A stretch of 24,872 bases of DNA, taken from a virus (Duplodnaviria > Heunggongvirae > Uroviricota > Caudoviricetes). This document shows, in pieces, positions 3,519-19,824 of the stretch. Position 1 is the first letter of the stretch. Each line of letters begins with the position of its first letter. The notes under the pieces were generated by a model. The model had not been told where the DNA came from. It searched no databases and was given only the letters and a program-made list of their open reading frames with translations. Where the stretch lies: positions 1 to 24,872 of IMG/VR virus record IMGVR_UViG_2737471862_000008. One strand, written 5' to 3'. A program made the position numbers and the translations under genes.

Positions 3519-5387
3519 GTGATTTTCAAATTGTATGAAGGGTCTTACAATCCAATGAATTACAATGAAGAGCTAACCTCATATCTTAATTATTTAGTGG
3601 ATCTTGAAAAACCCCCTAATTTCGCAGTAATGATTGACGGCGAATGGGGAAGCGGGAAAACATGGTTTGTCCGTAAATTAATGAATGAAGAATCACTAAA
3701 AAGGGAAGTTAAGCCATTAATGATCTCATTATATGGAATAAAATCCACCGAACAAATTGACGAAATAATTTTCAAGCAAATGCATCCCTTCCTTTCATCT
3801 AAAGGCATGTTGCTTGCTGGCACACTAACTAAGGCACTAATTAAAGGCACACTTAAGATTGATTTAAGTGATTCATTCGTTACAAGTGTAGAGGGCTCCC
3901 CAGAACTACCCAACGTAAGCATTAAAGACTTTTACTACTCACCAGAAAACACCATATTGATATTTGATGATCTTGAACGCTGCGAATTAGATTGGAATTC
4001 TATATTTGGTTATATAAATAATTTCGTTGAAGAAAAAGAATGCAAGGTTTTGATTATCGCCAATGAGAGAGAAATATTAAACCCCGCTAGAAATAAAAAT
4101 CATGATGATATTTATTTAGATGCAAAAGAAAAAGTTATAGGTATAACTTTCAAATATCAACCTCAACATTCTCACGCCTACGAATATTTTCTAAAAAATA
4201 TAACTAGCGAACTCAACACCATTCTGAACATAAAAAATATTGAGAGCTTACTCACTCTTTCAGAGTGTAATAACATTAGATTAATTGAAAGGCAAATTTC
4301 TTTTTTTGAAAGAATATTCAAAATATTACCAGCACAGTTTCAGCAAAATTCAGATTTGACACTCAGATTATATCAATTACATTTTATACTCTATTTTGAA
4401 TCTAATAAAATAAAACGAACCGTTTCTGACTTGTTAACATATAAAATAGATGATGATAATAAATACACATCCAATTTAATTGAAAAATATGGTACAACTT
4501 ATTTGTCAAATTTAATCTTAGACGAGGATACCTGGATCGATATAATTGACAATCAGAAAATCAATCAAGAAAAAATAATATCTGAATTAATAACATTTGT
4601 CAGTGTTTCTAATAAAACAATTGAACCATGGACACAACTTTGGAATTATGATCGATTAAAATACACAGAATTTGAGGAAAATTACAATTCAACACTTCAT
4701 ACGCTTATTAATTTTGAAATATTGAACGAGCATGTTCTTAAGCATATTTACGGATTATTACTTCATTTATCCAGAGAACATATAAAACCCATCAACGAAC
4801 ACTATTTAACAAACTTAGCCCACTCTGCTGTTGATATTTTAGCAGAAAAAGGAATGATACAAACTAGTTATGAAATTTTTGATGAAGACATTAAGGATGA
4901 GCGATGGGGAGGATTAACTTTTCATTGCAAAGAAACTAGGGAATTCAAGGAGCTTGTTAATTACATAGAACAAAAGAAAAATGTATTAATTGCATATCAA
5001 CTTAGCCAAGATGCTCAAAAGATATTCAAATTAATACAGTCCGGAAATCATGAATATTACGCACATCTAAATTTCAACAACAAAGATATTTATTCATTTC
5101 ACGACAAACCAGTTCTTTATTTTGGTGATGCTGAACAACTAACAAAAATGCTGATAGACTCAACCGAAATGCATTTCTTTGGCTATGCTATAAAAAACCG
5201 ATACAACAACACCCATTATCTAAAAGAGCTTTCTGCAGAGCGTTTTTTCCACCGCGAGCTAATTAGAAAGCTAATTGAAAAGAAAACTCAAATAAACTCA
5301 AATATATTATCATTACAAATCGATGAGCTCATAAATGATTGTTTAACTCCCGCAATAGATAAATTAAAGCAAAGCATTGAAAATTAA
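3519..5387 (+). CDS. KAP-family-like P-loop NTPase; AT-rich cargo gene inserted between S and V
   Basis: 622-aa ORF (start may instead be the ATG at 3555). Walker A reads GEWGSGKT, matching the KAP signature GxWGxGK[ST]; Walker B reads ILIFDDLERC, matching hhhhDDLDRC. Base composition is conspicuously AT-rich compared with the flanking tail genes. P2 has no gene at this position. Confidence 0.7.
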   Translation: MIFKLYEGSYNPMNYNEELTSYLNYLVDLEKPPNFAVMIDGEWGSGKTWFVRKLMNEESLKREVKPLMISLYGIKSTEQIDEIIFKQMHPFLSSKGMLLAGTLTKALIKGTLKIDLSDSFVTSVEGSPELPNVSIKDFYYSPENTILIFDDLERCELDWNSIFGYINNFVEEKECKVLIIANEREILNPARNKNHDDIYLDAKEKVIGITFKYQPQHSHAYEYFLKNITSELNTILNIKNIESLLTLSECNNIRLIERQISFFERIFKILPAQFQQNSDLTLRLYQLHFILYFESNKIKRTVSDLLTYKIDDDNKYTSNLIEKYGTTYLSNLILDEDTWIDIIDNQKINQEKIISELITFVSVSNKTIEPWTQLWNYDRLKYTEFEENYNSTLHTLINFEILNEHVLKHIYGLLLHLSREHIKPINEHYLTNLAHSAVDILAEKGMIQTSYEIFDEDIKDERWGGLTFHCKETREFKELVNYIEQKKNVLIAYQLSQDAQKIFKLIQSGNHEYYAHLNFNNKDIYSFHDKPVLYFGDAEQLTKMLIDSTEMHFFGYAIKNRYNNTHYLKELSAERFFHRELIRKLIEKKTQINSNILSLQIDELINDCLTPAIDKLKQSIEN

Positions 5388-11374: not shown

Positions 11375-13141
11375 ATGAACACCACACTGACACCCACAGA
11401 TCTCGATCCCCGTCGGCAGGCCATGCTGCTGTACTTTCAGGGATACCGCGTCGCCCGCATTGCTGAAATGCTGGGCGAGAAAGTTGCAACCGTTCACAGC
11501 TGGAAAAAACGCGACAAGTGGGGTGACTATGGGCCGCTGGATCAGATGCAGCTCACCACCGCCGCACGCTACTGCCAGCTCATTATGAAGGAGCACAAAG
11601 AAGGGAAAGATTTCAAAGAAATTGACCTGCTGGCACGCCAGTCTGAGCGCCACGCGCGGATCGGCAAGTTTAACAATGGCGGCAATGAAGCCGACTTAAA
11701 CCCTAACGTTGCCAACCGCAACAAAGGCCCACGTCGTCAGCCGGAAAAGAATGTTTTCACCGATGAACAGATTGAGAAACTGGAAGAAATCTTCCATTCC
11801 TCCATGTTCAACTACCAGCGCCACTGGTGGGAAGCCGGAAAAACCAACCGCATCCGCAACCTGCTGAAGTCACGCCAGATCGGCGCGACCTTTTACTTTG
11901 CCCGTGAAGCCCTGATTGACGCCCTGCTGACCGGACGTAACCAGATTTTCCTTTCCGCCAGCAAGGCACAGGCCCACGTCTTTAAGCAGTACATCATCGA
12001 CTTCGCCAAAGAAGTGGAAGTGGAGCTGAAAGGCGATCCGATGGTGCTTCCCAACGGGGCCACGCTTTACTTCCTCGGCACCAATGCCCGCACGGCCCAG
12101 AGTTACCACGGCAACCTGTATCTGGATGAATATTTCTGGATACCGAAATTCCAGGAGCTGCGCAAAGTGGCTTCCGGTATGGCTATTCACAAAAAATGGC
12201 GACAAACCTATTTTTCCACGCCATCCAGCCTGACACACAGTGCTTATCCGTTCTGGTCCGGTGCGCTGTTTAACCGTGGGCGCAACAAAGCCGATAAGGT
12301 GGACATCGACCTGTCCCACAACAATCTGGCCCCCGGCTTGCTGTGCGCAGACGGGCAATACCGCCAGATAGTCACCGTGGAAGATGCGGTGCGCGGCGGC
12401 TGTAACCTGTTCGACCTCGACCAGCTACGCATGGAGTACAGCCCGGACGAATATCAGAACCTGCTGATGTGCGAGTTCGTGGACGATCTCGCGTCCGTGT
12501 TCCCGCTCAGCGAACTGCAGGCGTGCATGGTGGACAGTTGGGAAGTCTGGACCGACTTTCATGCACTGGCCCTGCGCCCGTTTGGCTGGCGCGAGGTGTG
12601 GATCGGTTATGACCCGGCAAAAGGTACGCAGAACGGCGACAGCGCCGGATGCGTGGTGGTGGCACCGCCAGCCGTGCCAGGCGGTAAGTTTCGCATTCTT
12701 GAGCGCCACCAGTGGCGCGGGATGGACTTCCGCGCCCAGGCTGATGCAATCAAAAAACTGACCGAGCAGTACAACGTGACCTATATCGGCATCGACTCGA
12801 CAGGCGTCGGTCACGGGGTTTATGAGAACGTGAAAGCGTTCTTTCCTGCCGTCCGGGAGTTTGTCTACAACCCCAACGTTAAAAACGCTCTGGTACTCAA
12901 GGCCTACGACATTATCAGCCACCGCCGTCTGGAGTTTGACGCCGGACACACCGACATAGCGCAGTCATTTATGGCAATCCGTCGCGCCACCACCGCCAGT
13001 GGCAACCGCCCGACCTATGAAGCCAGCCGCAGCGAAGAAGCCAGCCACGCCGATCTGGCCTGGGCAACGATGCACGCACTGTTTAACGAACCGCTGCAGG
13101 GCGAATCCGCCAATACCAGCAATATTGTGGAGATTTTTTGA
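11375..13141 (+). CDS. P: Terminase large (ATPase) subunit P
   Basis: 588 aa (P2 gpP is about 590 aa). Divergent from O; stop overlaps the Q start. Confidence 0.92.
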   Translation: MNTTLTPTDLDPRRQAMLLYFQGYRVARIAEMLGEKVATVHSWKKRDKWGDYGPLDQMQLTTAARYCQLIMKEHKEGKDFKEIDLLARQSERHARIGKFNNGGNEADLNPNVANRNKGPRRQPEKNVFTDEQIEKLEEIFHSSMFNYQRHWWEAGKTNRIRNLLKSRQIGATFYFAREALIDALLTGRNQIFLSASKAQAHVFKQYIIDFAKEVEVELKGDPMVLPNGATLYFLGTNARTAQSYHGNLYLDEYFWIPKFQELRKVASGMAIHKKWRQTYFSTPSSLTHSAYPFWSGALFNRGRNKADKVDIDLSHNNLAPGLLCADGQYRQIVTVEDAVRGGCNLFDLDQLRMEYSPDEYQNLLMCEFVDDLASVFPLSELQACMVDSWEVWTDFHALALRPFGWREVWIGYDPAKGTQNGDSAGCVVVAPPAVPGGKFRILERHQWRGMDFRAQADAIKKLTEQYNVTYIGIDSTGVGHGVYENVKAFFPAVREFVYNPNVKNALVLKAYDIISHRRLEFDAGHTDIAQSFMAIRRATTASGNRPTYEASRSEEASHADLAWATMHALFNEPLQGESANTSNIVEIF

Positions 13142-14178
13142 TGGGAAAGAGTAAGAAAAACCGCGCTGCGGCGACGAACCAGATTCAGCATAAAAGCCAG
13201 ACTTCAGCCGAAGCATTCAGCTTTGGCGATCCCGTTCCTGTTCTGGACCGCCGAGAATTACTGGACTATGTGGAATGCGTACAGATGGACCGTTGGTATG
13301 AGCCGCCCGTCAGCTTTGACGGACTGGCGCGCACCTTCCGCGCTGCCGTGCATCACAGTTCCCCGATTGCAGTAAAGTGCAACATTCTGACCAGTACCTA
13401 TATCCCTCATCCTCTGCTCAGCCAGCAAGCTTTTTCACGTTTTGTGCAGGACTATCTGGTATTTGGTAACGCCTACCTGGAGAAACGCACGAACCGCTTC
13501 GGTGAAGTTATCGCCCTTGAGCCTGCACTGGCAAAATACATCCGACGCGGGTTAGACCTGGATACCTACTGGTTTGTGCAATACAGTATGACAACCCAGC
13601 CGTATCAGTTCACGAAAGGCAGCATTTTTCATCTGATGGAACCGGACATTAACCAGGAGATCTACGGCCTGCCCGGTTATCTTTCTGCCATTCCGTCAGC
13701 TCTGCTCAACGAGTCCGCCACGCTGTTCCGCCGCAAGTATTACATTAACGGCAGTCATGCAGGCTTCATCATGTACATGACCGATGCCGCGCAGAACCAG
13801 GAAGATGTGAACAACCTCCGCAATGCGATGAAAAGCGCCAAAGGTCCGGGTAACTTCCGCAATCTGTTTATGTACTCGCCTAATGGTAAAAAAGACGGAC
13901 TTCAGATTATCCCATTGTCAGAAGTCGCAGCGAAGGATGAATTTCTGAACATCAAGAACGTCAGCCGTGATGACATGATGGCAGCGCATCGTGTGCCACC
14001 ACAAATGATGGGAATAATGCCTAGCAATGTTGGGGGGTTTGGGGATGTGGAGAAGGCTAGTCTTGTATTTGTTCGCAATGAATTGATGCCACTACAGAAG
14101 CGACTACATGAACTAAACGAATGGGTGGGTGCAGAAGTAATACGTTTTGATGACTATGTTTTAGGTGTTCAGGAATAA
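13141..14178 (+). CDS. Q: Portal (capsid vertex) protein Q
   Basis: Track ORF starts at a TTG at 13138; the ATG at 13141 follows GGAG and overlaps the P stop (TGATG). About 345 aa, as P2 gpQ. Confidence 0.9.
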   Translation: MGKSKKNRAAATNQIQHKSQTSAEAFSFGDPVPVLDRRELLDYVECVQMDRWYEPPVSFDGLARTFRAAVHHSSPIAVKCNILTSTYIPHPLLSQQAFSRFVQDYLVFGNAYLEKRTNRFGEVIALEPALAKYIRRGLDLDTYWFVQYSMTTQPYQFTKGSIFHLMEPDINQEIYGLPGYLSAIPSALLNESATLFRRKYYINGSHAGFIMYMTDAAQNQEDVNNLRNAMKSAKGPGNFRNLFMYSPNGKKDGLQIIPLSEVAAKDEFLNIKNVSRDDMMAAHRVPPQMMGIMPSNVGGFGDVEKASLVFVRNELMPLQKRLHELNEWVGAEVIRFDDYVLGVQE

Positions 14179-14181
14179 AAG

Positions 14182-14209
14182 AAAAGGCGCTAATCTCAGC
14201 GCCTTTTAT
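14182..14209. terminator. Bidirectional rho-independent terminator between convergent Q and the cargo operon
   Basis: AAAAGAAAA-GGCGC-TAATCTCA-GCGCC-TTTTAT: a stem-loop flanked by an A-tract and a T-tract, in the 46-bp gap between two convergent stop codons. Confidence 0.55.
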
Positions 14210-14224
14210 CTAACTAACCATATA

Positions 14225-14563
14225 TTAACAAACAGCGTATAAACCATCAAATCCAACGGAATGAACCTTTTTTGATGCTACTTCATTGCTACGGCGTTGG
14301 ATCACTTTTGCAATACTTTTTAAAATTGAAGGGGATGCATTGCGAACCTTAACCTGACTCAAAACTTTGGTTACACCGAATTTCACTACCAAAACACCAA
14401 AGATTTCATCAGAGTATGATTCTGAAATTGAATAAACACCGCTCAGGTCTAAATCTACGGTATACCCTTCTTTAATGAACCCTTCAATCTTGTGTCGTTG
14501 GGGGATAGCCTGATTGCGCGAAGCCAGGTCACCCTCGGGTAACTTGTATGCGATTTTGTTCAT
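14225..14563 (-). CDS. Small STAS-like (anti-sigma-antagonist-like) protein; second gene of a two-gene cargo operon
   Basis: 112 aa. Start overlaps the upstream gene's stop (TAATG) and follows GGAGGAG. The motif VDLDLSGVYSISESYSDEIFGVLVV resembles the STAS/DUF4325-type hLDhsGV..hssSFaDEhfG core. Recalled similarity, not computed. Confidence 0.5.
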   Translation of the reverse strand: MNKIAYKLPEGDLASRNQAIPQRHKIEGFIKEGYTVDLDLSGVYSISESYSDEIFGVLVVKFGVTKVLSQVKVRNASPSILKSIAKVIQRRSNEVASKKVHSVGFDGLYAVC

Positions 14564-15537
14564 TACTCTCCTCCTAACGCCCGCATTATTTCCATAAGCT
14601 GAGGGTCATTTTCTTCGCTATCTTTATCGACTGCCAGTTCATGAATCTTAAAACGGCAAGAAATTGCTACACCCGGCCATTCAGTACGTAATTCAGTATA
14701 GCTCACTTCATCACCTATTGCTTCTAAGCATACATTTCCTGAAGCCAGTTGCAATTCCCCATTATATGTTTTTATCAATTTCATCAAGTGATATAACCCA
14801 AGCCCTTGATGATTATTATCTTTTTCTTTGACCGAAACCCCGTGACCAAACACACTACCCCCAATAAAATCCTGGGGAAGTTGCTGTGCCCAATCATCCT
14901 GCAAATCAGCATGCTTAGATGAATGTCCCTCTTGAATACACCATGCGATCGCATCCTGGTGAGTCTCAATTCCGGGTATACCAGCTCGCCGCAATTCTCG
15001 GAGAAATCCTAACCCACAGTCCGCCAAAGAAAATTCTAAATAGTGCTCTTTTCTTTGTGTGTGGGGTACAGCCGAACGTTGTGCAAAAGAAAAACCCGTT
15101 GATTTTCCATGCGACCAAACGTTATCGTGAAGCTCACCTATAACATGTGTTAGATCTGTAAGTCCCTTGGGATAATCTCTCGGATCACGATCAGGGAATG
15201 TTAACTGCCTTACACAACTGTTAATACTACCAGTGGCAACGTCAACAGCTTCAACATTGGTTAATGCTGTAACCAAACTGTAATTTCTCCCAACATTTAC
15301 ACGTTCCTGTTGATACTGATCCTCGCCCCATAAAGCACCATGTAAATTGATAGCCCGCATATAGTCAGGGCATGACAAAACGCAGTTATCTTCGGTAATT
15401 TTGTGATGATTCACGTAAGCTGCTAAGACAGTGATAAAACCAGGATGCCAATGGTTGTTTGGCAATTGCAATTCATTAGTTTCCTTTTGATGAAACGCAG
15501 CGGTATGCACAATAGCGTCTTTTAATCCTAACCCCAT
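14563..15537 (-). CDS. GHKL-type (histidine-kinase/anti-sigma-kinase-like) ATPase with an N-terminal domain of unknown function
   Basis: 324 aa. Bergerat-fold motifs are visible: N-box GELHDNVWSHG, G1 box LADCGLGF, G2 box HQGLGLYHL. The first ~130 aa have no recognisable motif. Lower GC than the phage backbone. Confidence 0.6.
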   Translation of the reverse strand: MGLGLKDAIVHTAAFHQKETNELQLPNNHWHPGFITVLAAYVNHHKITEDNCVLSCPDYMRAINLHGALWGEDQYQQERVNVGRNYSLVTALTNVEAVDVATGSINSCVRQLTFPDRDPRDYPKGLTDLTHVIGELHDNVWSHGKSTGFSFAQRSAVPHTQRKEHYLEFSLADCGLGFLRELRRAGIPGIETHQDAIAWCIQEGHSSKHADLQDDWAQQLPQDFIGGSVFGHGVSVKEKDNNHQGLGLYHLMKLIKTYNGELQLASGNVCLEAIGDEVSYTELRTEWPGVAISCRFKIHELAVDKDSEENDPQLMEIMRALGGE

Positions 15538-15566
15538 GAACCGAACCTTTTTTATGCATTTTTCTT

Positions 15567-15595
15567 ATCATATAACTTAGGACTGATCAGCGCAA
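15567..15595 (-). promoter_or_regulatory. Candidate sigma70 promoter of the GHKL/STAS operon
   Basis: On the minus strand: TTGCGC, 17 nt, TATGAT, about 30 nt upstream of the ATG at 15537. Prediction by eye only. Confidence 0.3.
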
Positions 15596-15649
15596 AGATC
15601 CCGACACTCTTGAATCATACTAAATTAAGGCCTATACCACACAGCGCGC

Positions 15650-15672
15650 GCTCGTATCCCCGCCACGCCTGC
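15650..15672. other. cos-like sequence (candidate cohesive-end site of the phage genome)
   Basis: The minus-strand reading of 15658..15669 is GGCGTGGCGGGG. That equals the first 12 nt of the 19-nt cohesive end I recall for phage 186 (GGCGTGGCGGGGAAAGCAT); P2 has GGCGAGGCGGGG. The match decays after 12 nt. It sits in a GC-rich island between two AT-rich cargo modules. Confidence 0.4.
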
Positions 15673-15711
15673 CCGCTTTATGTAGCGGTTTTCATGCGCC
15701 TGCATGACATA

Positions 15712-15738
15712 AGCAAAATCCCGCCACTCCTGGCGGGC
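15712..15738 (-). terminator. Putative rho-independent terminator of the membrane-protein cassette
   Basis: Hairpin CCCGCCA-CTCC-TGGCGGG, followed on the minus strand by ATTTTGCTT, about 90 nt downstream of the 15830 stop. Confidence 0.4.
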
Positions 15739-15829
15739 CTCAGCTAAAACGATCCTCAAACGATCATGCGGATTCATGCGGCATAGACATGCACAATCTC
15801 CAAAGCGGGCATCGAGACTTTTTGGAAAC

Positions 15830-16441
15830 CTACGTAACCACAGTTAATGTGTGCATCCTGTCTCGAATTGCATCACACGTCTCATCAAAAAGCTTGGTGA
15901 TGGTTGTATGGTTCAACTCCGCCTCTTTCCAATAATTTTGCCCGTCAAATTCTGGATCGCTATGCTTAAACGATATTGACTCTGAAAGGCATTCCTTCCG
16001 GAAACGGTCCAAGATTATATAAACCTCTGGTGAGATGAACGGTTTGTTAGATTCAACACTTGTAACAAAAGTGTTAAATGCATCAGAAAAAACTTTCAAC
16101 CTTCTAAATTTTCTCTCTTCAAATGGTTCGTTGGGGTCAACATGATCCAGCGCAGGCCTCAGCTTAAGCACGCTTTCTCTGGTTTCAAACATCGAATTCC
16201 AAATGAGACTATATGCTGATAACTCCTTATCAAAATACGCTTTCGTTACATAAACAGAATTGTCTAACTTAGCCTTTATTCTTTCATTAGTTGCACTCAG
16301 TTGTGATTGAAATTCAGCAATATCTTTGTTTAGCCGCGACTTATATCTTTCTAAATAAACTTTCCCGATCCAAACAAATATGCCAGATGCAACAAAAGAC
16401 ACCCCACCCAACGAAGCCAGAACTTTAAAGACTAAATCCAT
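15830..16441 (-). CDS. Membrane-anchored protein of unknown function (single N-terminal TM helix plus ~175-aa soluble domain); single-gene cargo cassette
   Basis: 203 aa. N-terminal hydrophobic helix VLASLGGVSFVASGIFVWIG, then a charged coiled-coil-like region. RBS GGTGGGGG precedes the ATG. AT-rich. Lies where P2-family phages carry variable genes (tin/old position). Confidence 0.55.
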   Translation of the reverse strand: MDLVFKVLASLGGVSFVASGIFVWIGKVYLERYKSRLNKDIAEFQSQLSATNERIKAKLDNSVYVTKAYFDKELSAYSLIWNSMFETRESVLKLRPALDHVDPNEPFEERKFRRLKVFSDAFNTFVTSVESNKPFISPEVYIILDRFRKECLSESISFKHSDPEFDGQNYWKEAELNHTTITKLFDETCDAIRDRMHTLTVVT

Positions 16442-17409: not shown

Positions 17410-19824
17410 TTAATACAGGTTCCGCCACTTATCATCTTCCTGCAAACGCTGGTTCCGATAGAAGACACGCAGGCCTGCTCCTGACGGAATACTGCCGCCG
17501 CGAAGGAGTAAATCGACCTCTTTCTCGCTGCCATCAAATCCTCTGGACTTCAGTTCATAGACGAGCTGCTGTCGTTGATGGTCTGTAATTCGCTGTTTGT
17601 AGTCTCTACGCCGTTTCGGTTTCACCAGGCGTAACCTTGCAGCCAGTTCCCGGCGCTCTTTTTTGTTCATACTGTGCAGGTAATCGTGCAACTCCTTGTC
17701 ATCCATGTGGGTAATGTCCGTTCTGGTATCCCCATCAGCTGATTTGTCTTTCCCTTGTTGGTTCAAATTTTCAGCAAGGGGACAGTTATTGCCACGAGTC
17801 CAAGGGGCGCAAGCGCCCTGGTCGGCTGCCGCCTCCTGAACGTCAACGGCCTTACGAACCATTTTCCACTTCACGGCATGAGTGCAGATCTTGCCCTCTG
17901 CAATAGGTGACCAGATGCCATAAATACGAATGCCGTGATCGCCATAGGCGGTCGGCTCTTCGTTGATTTCATAAGCAGTTCTGATGAGGTGATATTTGCG
18001 GGGAACCAGTACGCCACCCTGCTTCATGATGTAGGTGGCAAAACAACCAGCATCAGCAGCAGCCAGAATGGCATCAAGGCGCGGGTTATCCAGTACCGGC
18101 GCACCTGCTTTTTTGTCCCCCTGTTGCCTTGCCGCCTGACCAGCCAGCAATCGCAGTTCACGGTAAGCCTGACGCCCCGGAATGCCAAAGAAGCGGAATT
18201 GCTGAACACGATGCAGAGACGCCCAGGCATTAACGTATTCAGCATTATCACGCAGGGATTTCCCCGTTTCCTTGCTGATCTCGCCAGCCAGACCACGCCC
18301 GTCAATGTTCTTACTGATGTATTTCGCGATGTAGCTTGTTGGCGTACCTTTGCGCGGGTTAATCAACTCAGACTTAAAGCGCGGCCCAGTGTTATTGCCC
18401 AGCTCCTCGCGGTCTTCACGGATGGCAAACTTACGCAGTAATGCAGTGATGGTGCGGCGGTCTTTTTTGCGCATAAAACACAACAGGTGCCAGTGAACTG
18501 TACCGTCATGATGCGGCTCAGCCACCCGCACGCCATACCACCGCAATCCGGCTTTGTGCATCGCCTTACGAAATGCAGCAAACATGCCGACCAGATAATC
18601 ACTGCTTTGTCTTACCGTCGCATTTGTCCAGGTTGGGTTGGGCCTGCCGTTATTTAGCGTGGAATGGAAACGTGACGGACAGGTGATGGTGTAGAAAACG
18701 GCGCAGTCACCGCGCATTTCCGCGATAAGCTCCAGACCTTTAACACAGGCCATCATCTCATTGCGGCGATGCGCTGGGTTGCTGCTGCTGGCGTTTACCA
18801 CATCCTCCATGTCCAGCGTGTCGCCGTCTTCGTTCACCAGTTCATGAGAACGGAAAAACTCCAGCGACTTACGGCGCTGCTCACGTTTATGCATCACGGC
18901 TTCATAGCTGACATAAGGAGATGCTTTTTTGCTGACAAGGCAGACTGCACGCAACTGCTCTTCCCGCCATTCGCAACGCATCTTCCATAATTTCCGATAC
19001 CACCAGTCGGCGCACAACATACGCGCCAGCGAACCCGGAATGAGTTCATAGGGCACGGGTTTACGGCGGTTTCTTTTCCGACGGAGTTGCTCAAACGCAG
19101 GCGGGATGACATCCAGACGCAGGGTTTCCGCTGCCACCCTTTCCCATGTATTGCGGATTTCTTCTGGCTTAACGTCATCGGTGGCATACAAATCGCCACA
19201 AGCGGCATCAAGGCACATACTCATATGCGCAGCTACCAGGGTGGACAGGCGTTTCACCTGATCCTGACTCATTTCAGGCAGGATCAGCAGGCCGTCCAGC
19301 CCTTCATGGCTTGCCATAAAGCGAAAAGATGCAGATAGCTGACTGTCGCGTACATGCTCCAGTCGTTCCAGACATGGCTTAATCGTCTCACGTAAATAGC
19401 GGGAATAAGCCTTTGGCCTGCCCAGGCTGCTGAAGTATTCAATACGTTGCATCAGCGGCTTGCTGATATGGGAAGGCTGGGCGTTGACGTCCGCCAGAAT
19501 GACCATATCCGGATTAAAACGCTGCTGCTCATGCGCCAGCTTTGCCCGACTAATGAGCTTATCCTGTTCCATTTCGCGCTGGACAGGATCACGGGATTCA
19601 TTAAAGAAATAACGCTCCCAGACCTGATCACTCAGCGCCTCACGGCGCAGCTGTTCCTGCTCGTTATCGGCAGCGTACAGAGTGATCAGGTTTGAAAGCG
19701 TAGAAACCGGCGCAACTTCCACCGGGTCCAGATAAGGGTTAATGGCCTTTTTCGGGCTGTTCCATGAGAACGATGCGGCAGCTTCGTTAAAGCCGCAGCA
19801 GTTGTTCATATCGGCATGACTCAT
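17410..19824 (-). CDS. A: Replication initiation protein A (rolling-circle nicking endonuclease)
   Basis: 804-aa ORF in the P2/186 position of gene A. Start ATG overlaps the Dam stop (ATGA). Confidence 0.88.

Follow-up and report, generated by a model that had tools for sequence, protein, structure and literature searches.

A two-gene operon carried by a P2/186-like prophage represents a toxin-less and phage-borne version of the immune switches, made of a kinase and a STAS protein, that were described in 2026; it sits in a known hotspot and is not categorically new. The window, by which we mean the whole 24,872-nucleotide stretch of DNA analyzed (IMG/VR record IMGVR_UViG_2737471862_000008, positions 1 to 24,872), is this prophage, and the pair is inserted between the portal gene Q and a cos-like site. 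The first gene encodes a kinase-type GHKL protein of 324 amino acids (aa), and the second a 112-aa protein with a STAS fold. Profile comparisons make it very likely that the pair belongs to the same biochemical class as VapK/VapS and CapK/CapS and is their distant homologue. With middling confidence, we propose that the pair is an autonomous, mobile two-gene phospho-switch of the VapK/VapS-CapK/CapS type, carried as accessory hotspot cargo under its own promoter, that would stop a superinfecting phage or arrest the cell. Its anti-phage or exclusion role is a candidate one, read from genomic context, and the case for it is evenly balanced.

In the 324-aa protein an additional N-terminal domain precedes an intact GHKL serine-kinase domain of the anti-sigma-factor type, and kinase activity is predicted. 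A first-pass annotation of this DNA, made from the letters alone, had read the protein as a Bergerat-fold ATPase with N, G1 and G2 boxes following an uncharacterized N-terminal domain of ~130 aa. That reading was borne out, with an N-terminal domain of ~125 aa: the N box (E135, N139, H143), the G1 box (D173-x-G175-x-G177) and the G2 box (G245-L-G247-L) are invariant in 48 homologues of 39-87% identity, and the protein has the Bergerat alpha/beta sandwich fold. The closest structural class is that of the anti-sigma-factor serine kinases (SpoIIAB/RsbW), with a cognate STAS gene adjoining. The annotation's expectation that profile searches would return both HATPase_c and DUF4325 held for the second only. 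The kinase-type protein scored 13.7 bits against Pfam HATPase_c, under the cut-off of 26.4, and 12.4 bits against HATPase_c_5, under the cut-off of 22; only 10-14 of the 48 family members reach E<1 against the HATPase_c models. The protein matches phrog_3364 at 1.7e-67, and its AlphaFold2 (AF2) model has a predicted local distance difference test score (pLDDT) of 85.7. The N-terminal domain is modeled with high confidence as alternating strands and helices. An insert of ~35 residues in the ATP lid (residues ~205-243) has low AF2 confidence, yet holds conserved residues and is family-specific, and the C-terminus consists of an acidic linker followed by a short conserved helix. Chance-open-reading-frame (ORF) and pseudogene readings of the pair were ruled out by the deep conservation and intact motifs. 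V. cholerae WonAB/VcSduA, found in a search of the GHKL literature, is unrelated (ABC ATPase plus nuclease, GHKL-Shedu fusion).

The 112-aa protein matched Pfam DUF4325 ('STAS-like') at 38.5 bits, over the cut-off of 23, and its AF2 model (pLDDT 90.5) shows the beta-beta-alpha-beta-alpha-beta-alpha order of a STAS domain. The first-pass annotation had proposed such a core and had singled out conserved Ser and Asp residues in an SxSxSxDE motif; the conserved motif, S-x-S-x-S-x-x-D-E, is present as S45-I-S47-E48-S49-Y50-S51-D52-E53 at the N-terminus of helix alpha2, the helix starting at residue 48. Phosphorylation of STAS proteins takes place at the start of helix alpha2. In 131 unique sequences, position 47 is Ser or Thr without exception, S49 is kept in 129, and D52 and E53 hardly vary. 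At position 48, Glu stands in 106 of the 131, the others including Gly, Asp, His and Lys. Given this pattern, the phospho-acceptor is probably S47 or S49. After the STAS core come only one long helix (residues 78-102) and a disordered tail ending in Cys; no winged helix-turn-helix (wHTH) or other DNA-binding domain was found in the protein. In most enterobacterial members the tail (window 14225-14260) ends in A-x-C-COOH with the terminal Cys conserved, and distant members have no tail. A separate observation concerns DISARM: the STAS protein matches the PADLOC model of DrmA, PDLC02567, over profile positions 314-397 (E 2.3e-6), a hint that a DUF4325-like domain is present in some DrmA proteins.

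The switches to which the pair is related were described by Chambers et al. (EMBO J 2026; PMC13373217), who presented VapKSC and CapKS as DNA-damage-sensing kinase-STAS immune switches. CapK, with helix-turn-helix (HTH), STAS and GHKL domains in that order, is switched on by single-stranded DNA (ssDNA) and phosphorylates a conserved Ser of CapS, a STAS-wHTH protein, so that CBASS, Bub or Thoeris operons are derepressed. In the other system VapS, which is a STAS domain plus a tail, is phosphorylated by VapK (STAS-GHKL), and the PIN toxin VapC is released; vapKSC gives ~100-fold protection against phage Bas42. An ssDNA groove is formed by the N-terminal STAS-like domain and includes a conserved aromatic residue, W68 in CapK and F54 in VapK (PMC13373217).

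VapK and VapS sequences were taken from the AlphaFold file deposited by the authors of PMC13373217. When the kinase family profile was compared with the single VapK sequence in hhalign, the probability was 93.4%, and against a 32-member VapK-family profile it was 94.1% (E 1.2e-7, 219 columns, query 21-300 opposite VapK 43-291). In phmmer searches with VapK, members of the kinase family were matched at 18-32 bits. The two families have the motifs W-x-C-Q-x-G-N-[ST]-[ST] and GLGLxxL in common, at an identity of ~21-25%. VapS itself is a Pfam DUF4325 protein (62.7 bits), and the STAS profile aligned without gaps to that of the 61-member VapS family (E 2.3e-5) at 19% identity. The full-length kinase alignment is collinear into the N-terminal domain, with H29-W30-H31-P32 opposite VapK F54-L55-R56-P57, F54 being the ssDNA-stacking residue; positions 29-30, which face F54-L55, are rich in aromatic residues. 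The N-terminal domain may correspond, in truncated form, to the STAS-like sensor domains of VapK and CapK. It has no similarity to DUF4325, by which the idea that it is a duplicated DUF4325 domain was ruled out. The first-pass annotation did not recognize the pair as a named anti-phage system. This stands insofar as no PADLOC model matches, but the pair very probably has named relatives, as a distant homologue of VapK/VapS and CapK/CapS with DUF4325 in both.

The two genes are kept together without a third. In species-representative genomes, the STAS gene follows the kinase gene in 40 of 41 loci, with an overlap or a gap of no more than ~25 nt, and the exception is cut by a contig end. The STAS gene likewise adjoins the kinase gene in 62 of 64 IMG/VR loci. 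The next gene downstream is mostly convergent, and no VapC-like PIN gene follows the STAS gene in the 40 genome and 62 viral loci. Nor did clustering of all flanking ORFs of 46 loci reveal a hidden third gene, as only P2 backbone genes and integrases recur. Close upstream genes on the same strand are heterogeneous (ABC-F, AbiJ-like, Dam, peptidase M3, ThiC, PolA). As a control, the same script was applied to 78 VapK loci, where it found VapS in 68 and a third gene of ~204 aa, confirmed as PIN, in 59. Because the script finds the PIN gene in VapK loci, the absence of a toxin from the loci of the pair is real and not a failure of detection. Fused GHKL-DUF4325 proteins occur in phages (phrog_5816), and a 'HATPase_c | DUF4325' fusion is listed for P4 satellites in the portion of the PMC9122126 supplement covered here. 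Such fusions support a direct physical coupling of kinase and STAS protein, and hence a direct interaction is predicted for the separate proteins.

The first-pass annotation had noted that the architecture resembles a partner-switching module but comes without a sigma factor. This proved general, as neither a sigma factor nor a PP2C phosphatase is linked to the pair in the window or in ~100 homologous loci. The finding bears on the proposal that the pair is a lysogenic-conversion partner switch acting on host physiology, through a sigma factor, a cyclic di-GMP enzyme or a secretion regulator, after the manner of RsbW/RsbV, SiaB/SiaC or HsbA. No output enzyme is linked to the pair in those loci either, there is no PP2C phosphatase to reset the switch, and the hosts, Gamma- and Betaproteobacteria, differ in their regulatory repertoires; we regard this proposal as highly improbable.

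Five of the 41 genome loci (L048-L052) combine an intact STAS gene with a kinase ORF broken into two or three pieces; four of them come from metagenome-assembled genomes (MAGs) and one from the complete genome of Neisseria weixii. The splits could reflect assembly error or counter-selection of the kinase. They speak for a reading of the pair as an addiction module, whose main role would be to stabilize the prophage or island and not to give immunity, with a kinase that is toxic through phosphorylation of essential host proteins and a STAS protein that serves as its pseudo-substrate or inhibitor. Such a module would overlap with abortive infection if it were triggered by phage. Also in its favor, the unit is self-contained, its genes are closely coupled, it travels between mobile elements of unrelated kinds, and kinase toxins have precedents in HipA and Stk2. 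Against it, the putative toxin is encoded first and the antitoxin second, an atypical order for type II toxin-antitoxin systems, and a DNA-binding domain is missing from the putative antitoxin. Frameshifts are common in MAGs, the source of four of the five splits, and the target that the kinase gene offers to mutation is threefold larger. Further, anti-sigma-type GHKL kinases such as SpoIIAB and RsbW phosphorylate, to our knowledge, only their own STAS partner. VapKSC has been described as a toxin-antitoxin-like system (PMC13373217), and Stk2 is cited in PMC9122126. On balance an addiction module is unlikely.

Another way to account for the missing toxin is that none is needed. The pair might be a complete immune or counter-immune device in which the GHKL kinase is itself the effector, or in which phosphorylated STAS protein inhibits an essential host machine. 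The kinase would be freed or activated via its STAS partner when phage DNA is sensed, and would then phosphorylate a conserved host or phage protein, the lid insert and C-terminal helix being used for target recognition. We consider this unlikely. With the kinase as effector, it would be the first case of an anti-sigma-type GHKL kinase acting as an abortive-infection effector.

The organization of the locus agrees with that of a self-contained insert. Both ORFs begin and end where the first-pass annotation placed them (Table 1), and its claim of translational coupling with a strong ribosome-binding site was confirmed: the minus strand at the gene junction reads TAGGAGGAGAGTAATGA, one base (14563) is common to the TAA of the kinase gene and the ATG of the STAS gene, and an AGGAGG Shine-Dalgarno sequence lies 6 nt upstream of that ATG. 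Q is convergent to the STAS gene, whose stop (14225) lies 47 nt downstream of that of Q (14178). Dividing the two genes is a terminator with a perfect 10-bp inverted repeat, AAAAGGCGCT-N6-AGCGCCTTTT, flanked by runs of A and T, one on each side, so the proposed bidirectional terminator common to Q and the operon is well founded; it occupies the position of tQ in P2. On the other side of the pair, GGCGTGGCGGGGATACGAG is identical to P2 cosL at 14 of 19 bases, as counted from the two sequences; the window contains no second copy, the number of matches expected by chance is 0, and the sequence supports the cos-like site that had been proposed. P2 has 186 bp between the Q stop and cosL, and the terminator tQ is the sole element there, which upholds the remark that P2 has essentially nothing there. 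The pair is therefore an insert of ~1.45 kb. Its GC content is also lower than that of the backbone, as had been noted, at 0.40-0.45 over 14000-15600 versus 0.53-0.60 in P and Q.

The claim that the operon has its own promoter stood in part. A strict sigma-70 consensus scan found no minus-strand promoter in the window. The motif TTGC(N)C-N17-TAT(G/T)AT is nevertheless kept at an equal distance from the start codon in the window and in three other loci (L012, L002 and L014), and the spacers are divergent. Because the motif is conserved in four divergent loci with differing spacers, we call TTGCGC-N17-TATGAT a putative promoter, as a phylogenetic footprint.

Table 1. Coordinates of the kinase-STAS operon and of surrounding features in the window
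Feature	Position	Strand	Basis
Terminase P	11375-13141	+	ORF list
Portal Q	13138-14178	+	Pfam Phage_portal
Bidirectional intrinsic terminator, common to Q (+) and cargo operon (-)	14182-14207	.	Inverted repeat and A/T runs
112-aa STAS-fold protein, VapS/CapS-like partner	14225-14563	-	Pfam DUF4325
TAATG stop/start overlap of kinase and STAS genes	14561-14565	-	Sequence reading
AGGAGG ribosome-binding site of STAS gene, within 3' end of kinase gene	14570-14575	-	Sequence reading
324-aa kinase-type GHKL protein, VapK-like component	14563-15537	-	phrog_3364, AF2, hhalign
GHKL (Bergerat-fold) kinase domain, residues ~124-300 (activity predicted)	14638-15168	-	N, G1, G2 boxes
N-terminal alpha/beta domain, residues 1-~122	15172-15537	-	AF2 model
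Putative sigma-70 promoter of cargo operon, -35 TTGCGC, N17, -10 TATGAT	15567-15595	-	Conservation across loci
Cos-like cohesive-end site, insert boundary on side away from Q	15651-15669	-	P2 cosL comparison
Replication gene A (gpA)	17410-19824		ORF list and Pfam

Rousset et al. (2022; PMC9122126) identified the gpA-gpQ interval around cos as a defense hotspot of P2-like phages. The suggestion that the pair is an undescribed module was upheld only in part: the locus is this known hotspot, and in the portion of the supplementary table of PMC9122126 covered here, this very pair is listed, uncharacterized, as 'hypothetical + DUF4325'. The accession given there is that of the RefSeq STAS protein, WP_023352533, of the 99.7%-identical locus of E. 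coli B27. Occupancy of the site is variable, as had been predicted. In 5,426 complete E. coli genomes, the cos segment (~15644-15796) is present in 1,267 and the pair in 25, and this 2% occupancy among cos-bearing genomes rules out the status of a core phage gene. In other phages the Q-to-cos slot holds different cargo: PRTase and DprA-like genes, i.e., DprA-PRTase, in Salmonella phage SopEPhi (L010 1599-3147), and a 580-aa AIPR protein in Klebsiella phage ST11-OXA245phi3.1 (L011 1749-3491), genes that the records of these two phages annotate only as 'unknown' or 'hypothetical'. DprA-PRTase is a validated anti-phage system (PMC9122126). In an E. coli relative that carries the pair (L002), DarTG lies across cos on the gpA side of the same gpA-gpQ interval.

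The pair also travels beyond this slot. It is found in a lambdoid antiterminator-Q/lysis moron site beside HigBA in Salmonella (L004), in a P4-like island in Pseudomonas (L003), 30 nt downstream of an AbiJ-like gene (L033), directly after a CI-type repressor gene with a 10-nt gap (L008), and in some loci beside integrases. In Francisella phage KIRK a 293-aa unannotated protein and a 112-aa DUF4325 protein are encoded after the CI repressor gene (PMC7924643), and these may be the same pair. In about 45 of the IMG/VR loci the carrier is a P2-like phage whose Q gene, convergent with the pair, lies 44-125 nt downstream of it. In two further P2-like loci, from a soil MAG (L014) and from IMG/VR (L094), the distance to the pair is 525 nt from gpA, which is upstream of it, and 552 nt from Q, and a small ORF lies in between. 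Compared with the window, the pair therefore appears to be located across cos, and insertion of this one cassette seems to have taken place at more than one site in the hotspot. At 50% identity and among 1.84 billion representatives, the family comprises 169 clusters under a threshold of E<=1e-30 and 270 under one of E<=1e-10. Homologues of the 324-aa protein fell into 295 clusters and those of the 112-aa protein into 61, with synteny conserved.

The family of the pair accounts for 65 IMG/VR loci, versus 1 for the much larger VapK family. In E. coli, three-gene vapKSC loci (297 + 116 + 203 aa; L199-L201) lie between chromosomal genes and phage tail-fiber genes, which looks like a prophage border; vapKSC would thus be prophage-associated in E. 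coli though near-absent from IMG/VR. That the family is overwhelmingly phage-borne and toxin-less, the toxin-containing VapK family being neither, and that VapKSC is found at E. coli prophage borders, would fit an orphan pair acting as a counter-defense decoy, one that interferes with host VapKSC or CapKS, for instance through titration of the host kinase or toxin or through a damped ssDNA signal at prophage induction. The divergence from VapK and VapS noted above is large, so cross-talk is unlikely; further, a decoy does not need an intact, invariant kinase active site, and the hotspot is known for defense systems, not anti-defense genes. We consider a decoy very unlikely.

Beyond the cos-like site there are further small ORFs and a DinI-like gene, followed by replication gene A. 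Directly across cos, on the gpA side of the hotspot, is a low-GC ORF of 203 aa (15830-16441, minus strand). It matches phrog_26391 (function unknown) end to end, has only sub-threshold Pfam hits, and received no Pfam, PADLOC or NCBIfam assignment; it is another uncharacterized hotspot occupant. The otherwise near-identical E. coli B27 locus has at this position a 219-aa protein of unknown function. With such cargo next door, a CapKS-like regulator may be envisaged, in which the pair would sense DNA damage and control neighboring cargo, prophage induction functions or host genes. CapK and CapS act in this way upstream of CBASS, Bub and Thoeris operons (PMC13373217), and a 186-like prophage would profit from sensing damage. 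The STAS partner has no wHTH or other DNA-binding domain, however, the operon ends at a convergent gene in most loci with no conserved neighbor, and a phage-specific target is unlikely given that the phages carrying the pair are of unrelated types. A regulator of this kind is distinctly unlikely. Elsewhere in the window, the product of a 622-aa ORF (3519-5387, plus strand) is a P-loop NTPase of the KAP family (Pfam, 61.7 bits). The ORF has a GC content of 27-34% against ~55% in the backbone, its strand is opposite to that of the flanking minus-strand ORFs, and it looks like a second, independent moron or defense-like cargo gene of the same prophage.

We return to the proposal that the pair is an autonomous phospho-switch directed against phages. 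An infection or DNA-damage cue would activate the kinase; by analogy with CapK and VapK, the cue would be ssDNA bound between the N-terminal domain and the GHKL domain. The activated kinase would phosphorylate its STAS partner on S47 or S49. Either the STAS protein, its binding altered, or the kinase itself, once freed, would then act on a target encoded outside the module, either a conserved host protein or a protein of the invading phage. As a result the superinfecting phage would be stopped or the infected cell arrested. The defense reading is supported by residence in a known P2 hotspot, by the defense genes in the same slot or nearby, and by the rarity and mobility of the pair. It is supported as well by the protection that VapKSC itself gives against phage Bas42 (PMC13373217).

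Several results weigh against this proposal. A sensor-switch without an output is incomplete as a defense system, and no effector domain is recognizable in either protein. PADLOC-DB v2 gave no defense-system match for the pair but only marginal hits, that of the kinase being to PDC-M65A (E 0.009), and NCBIfam gave no hits for either protein. Foldseek of the kinase model against the PDB returned weak generic GHKL matches (best E 4.5e-3) and none for the N-terminal domain; sequence searches of the PDB with single proteins and profiles of both proteins gave nothing meaningful. The N-terminal domain taken alone does not match VapK significantly (E 0.48). Since its homology to the ssDNA-binding STAS domain of VapK and CapK is not significant by itself, an ssDNA trigger is an analogy, and rather less likely than not. 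The VapS acceptor, Ser48, aligns with position 48 of the partner, where neither Ser nor Thr ever occurs, so that S47 or S49 could be phosphorylated only with a register shift of one residue. Finally, the main text of PMC9122126 does not include the pair where it names validated systems, and within the supplementary text covered here 'DUF4325' occurs only in the locus and system tables, with no sign that the pair was tested.

Kinase-STAS switches were tied to bacterial immunity only in 2026, and both described forms have an obvious output, a PIN toxin or a repressed operon. The lineage reported here, ~170-270 clusters (50% identity) in Gamma- and Betaproteobacteria and mostly in temperate phages, has strongly conserved the sensor-switch with no linked output. 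The interest of the pair thus lies in the missing effector and the unusual acceptor motif. If the pair protects against phages, a compact (1.3 kb) system would be added to the repertoire of the P2 hotspot, raising the question of what a stand-alone phospho-switch acts on, be it a host target, a phage protein, or any substrate of the kinase as effector. If it does not, the pair is a candidate DNA-damage sensor serving the prophages' own purposes.

Comparison with known systems places the pair nearest to VapKSC. In both, the kinase gene precedes the STAS gene and the two overlap or abut, the kinase has an extra N-terminal domain and an anti-sigma-type GHKL domain with detectable homology, and the STAS partner is a DUF4325 protein of ~112-116 aa; the prophage-border location of vapKSC in E. 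coli is a further likeness. The pair differs in having no recurrent third gene in ~100 loci, where 59 of 78 VapK loci have VapC/PIN, and in being mostly phage-borne as a family. Its kinase has the conserved ~35-residue lid insert, absent from VapK, and the C-terminal acidic tail and helix, but a shorter N-terminal domain, and the residue facing VapS Ser48 is Glu, Gly or Asp, among others, flanked by S47 and S49. With CapK-CapS the pair has in common a GHKL kinase encoded first, a STAS partner that is the substrate in CapKS and the predicted one here, and an association with immune loci; a conserved Ser at the start of alpha2 is the switch in CapS, and S47 and S49 are candidates for that part here. 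CapK has an additional N-terminal HTH, and CapS has a wHTH domain and lies upstream of the operon it regulates, whereas the pair has no HTH in either protein and no downstream operon. Compared to SpoIIAB-SpoIIAA and RsbW-RsbV, the pair has neither sigma factor nor PP2C phosphatase, its kinase is twice as long and has an extra domain, S-E-S-Y-x-D-E stands in place of their canonical D-S-[ST]-G-L-G acceptor motif, and it is carried on a mobile element, not in a sigma operon. The pair resembles other P2 gpA-gpQ cargo (old/tin, DprA-PRTase, DarTG, AIPR; PMC9122126) in its slot, small size, low GC content, own (here putative) promoter and variable occupancy, but its protein families are unrelated to those of these systems, and while old/tin and DprA-PRTase have a demonstrated anti-phage phenotype, the pair is a candidate.

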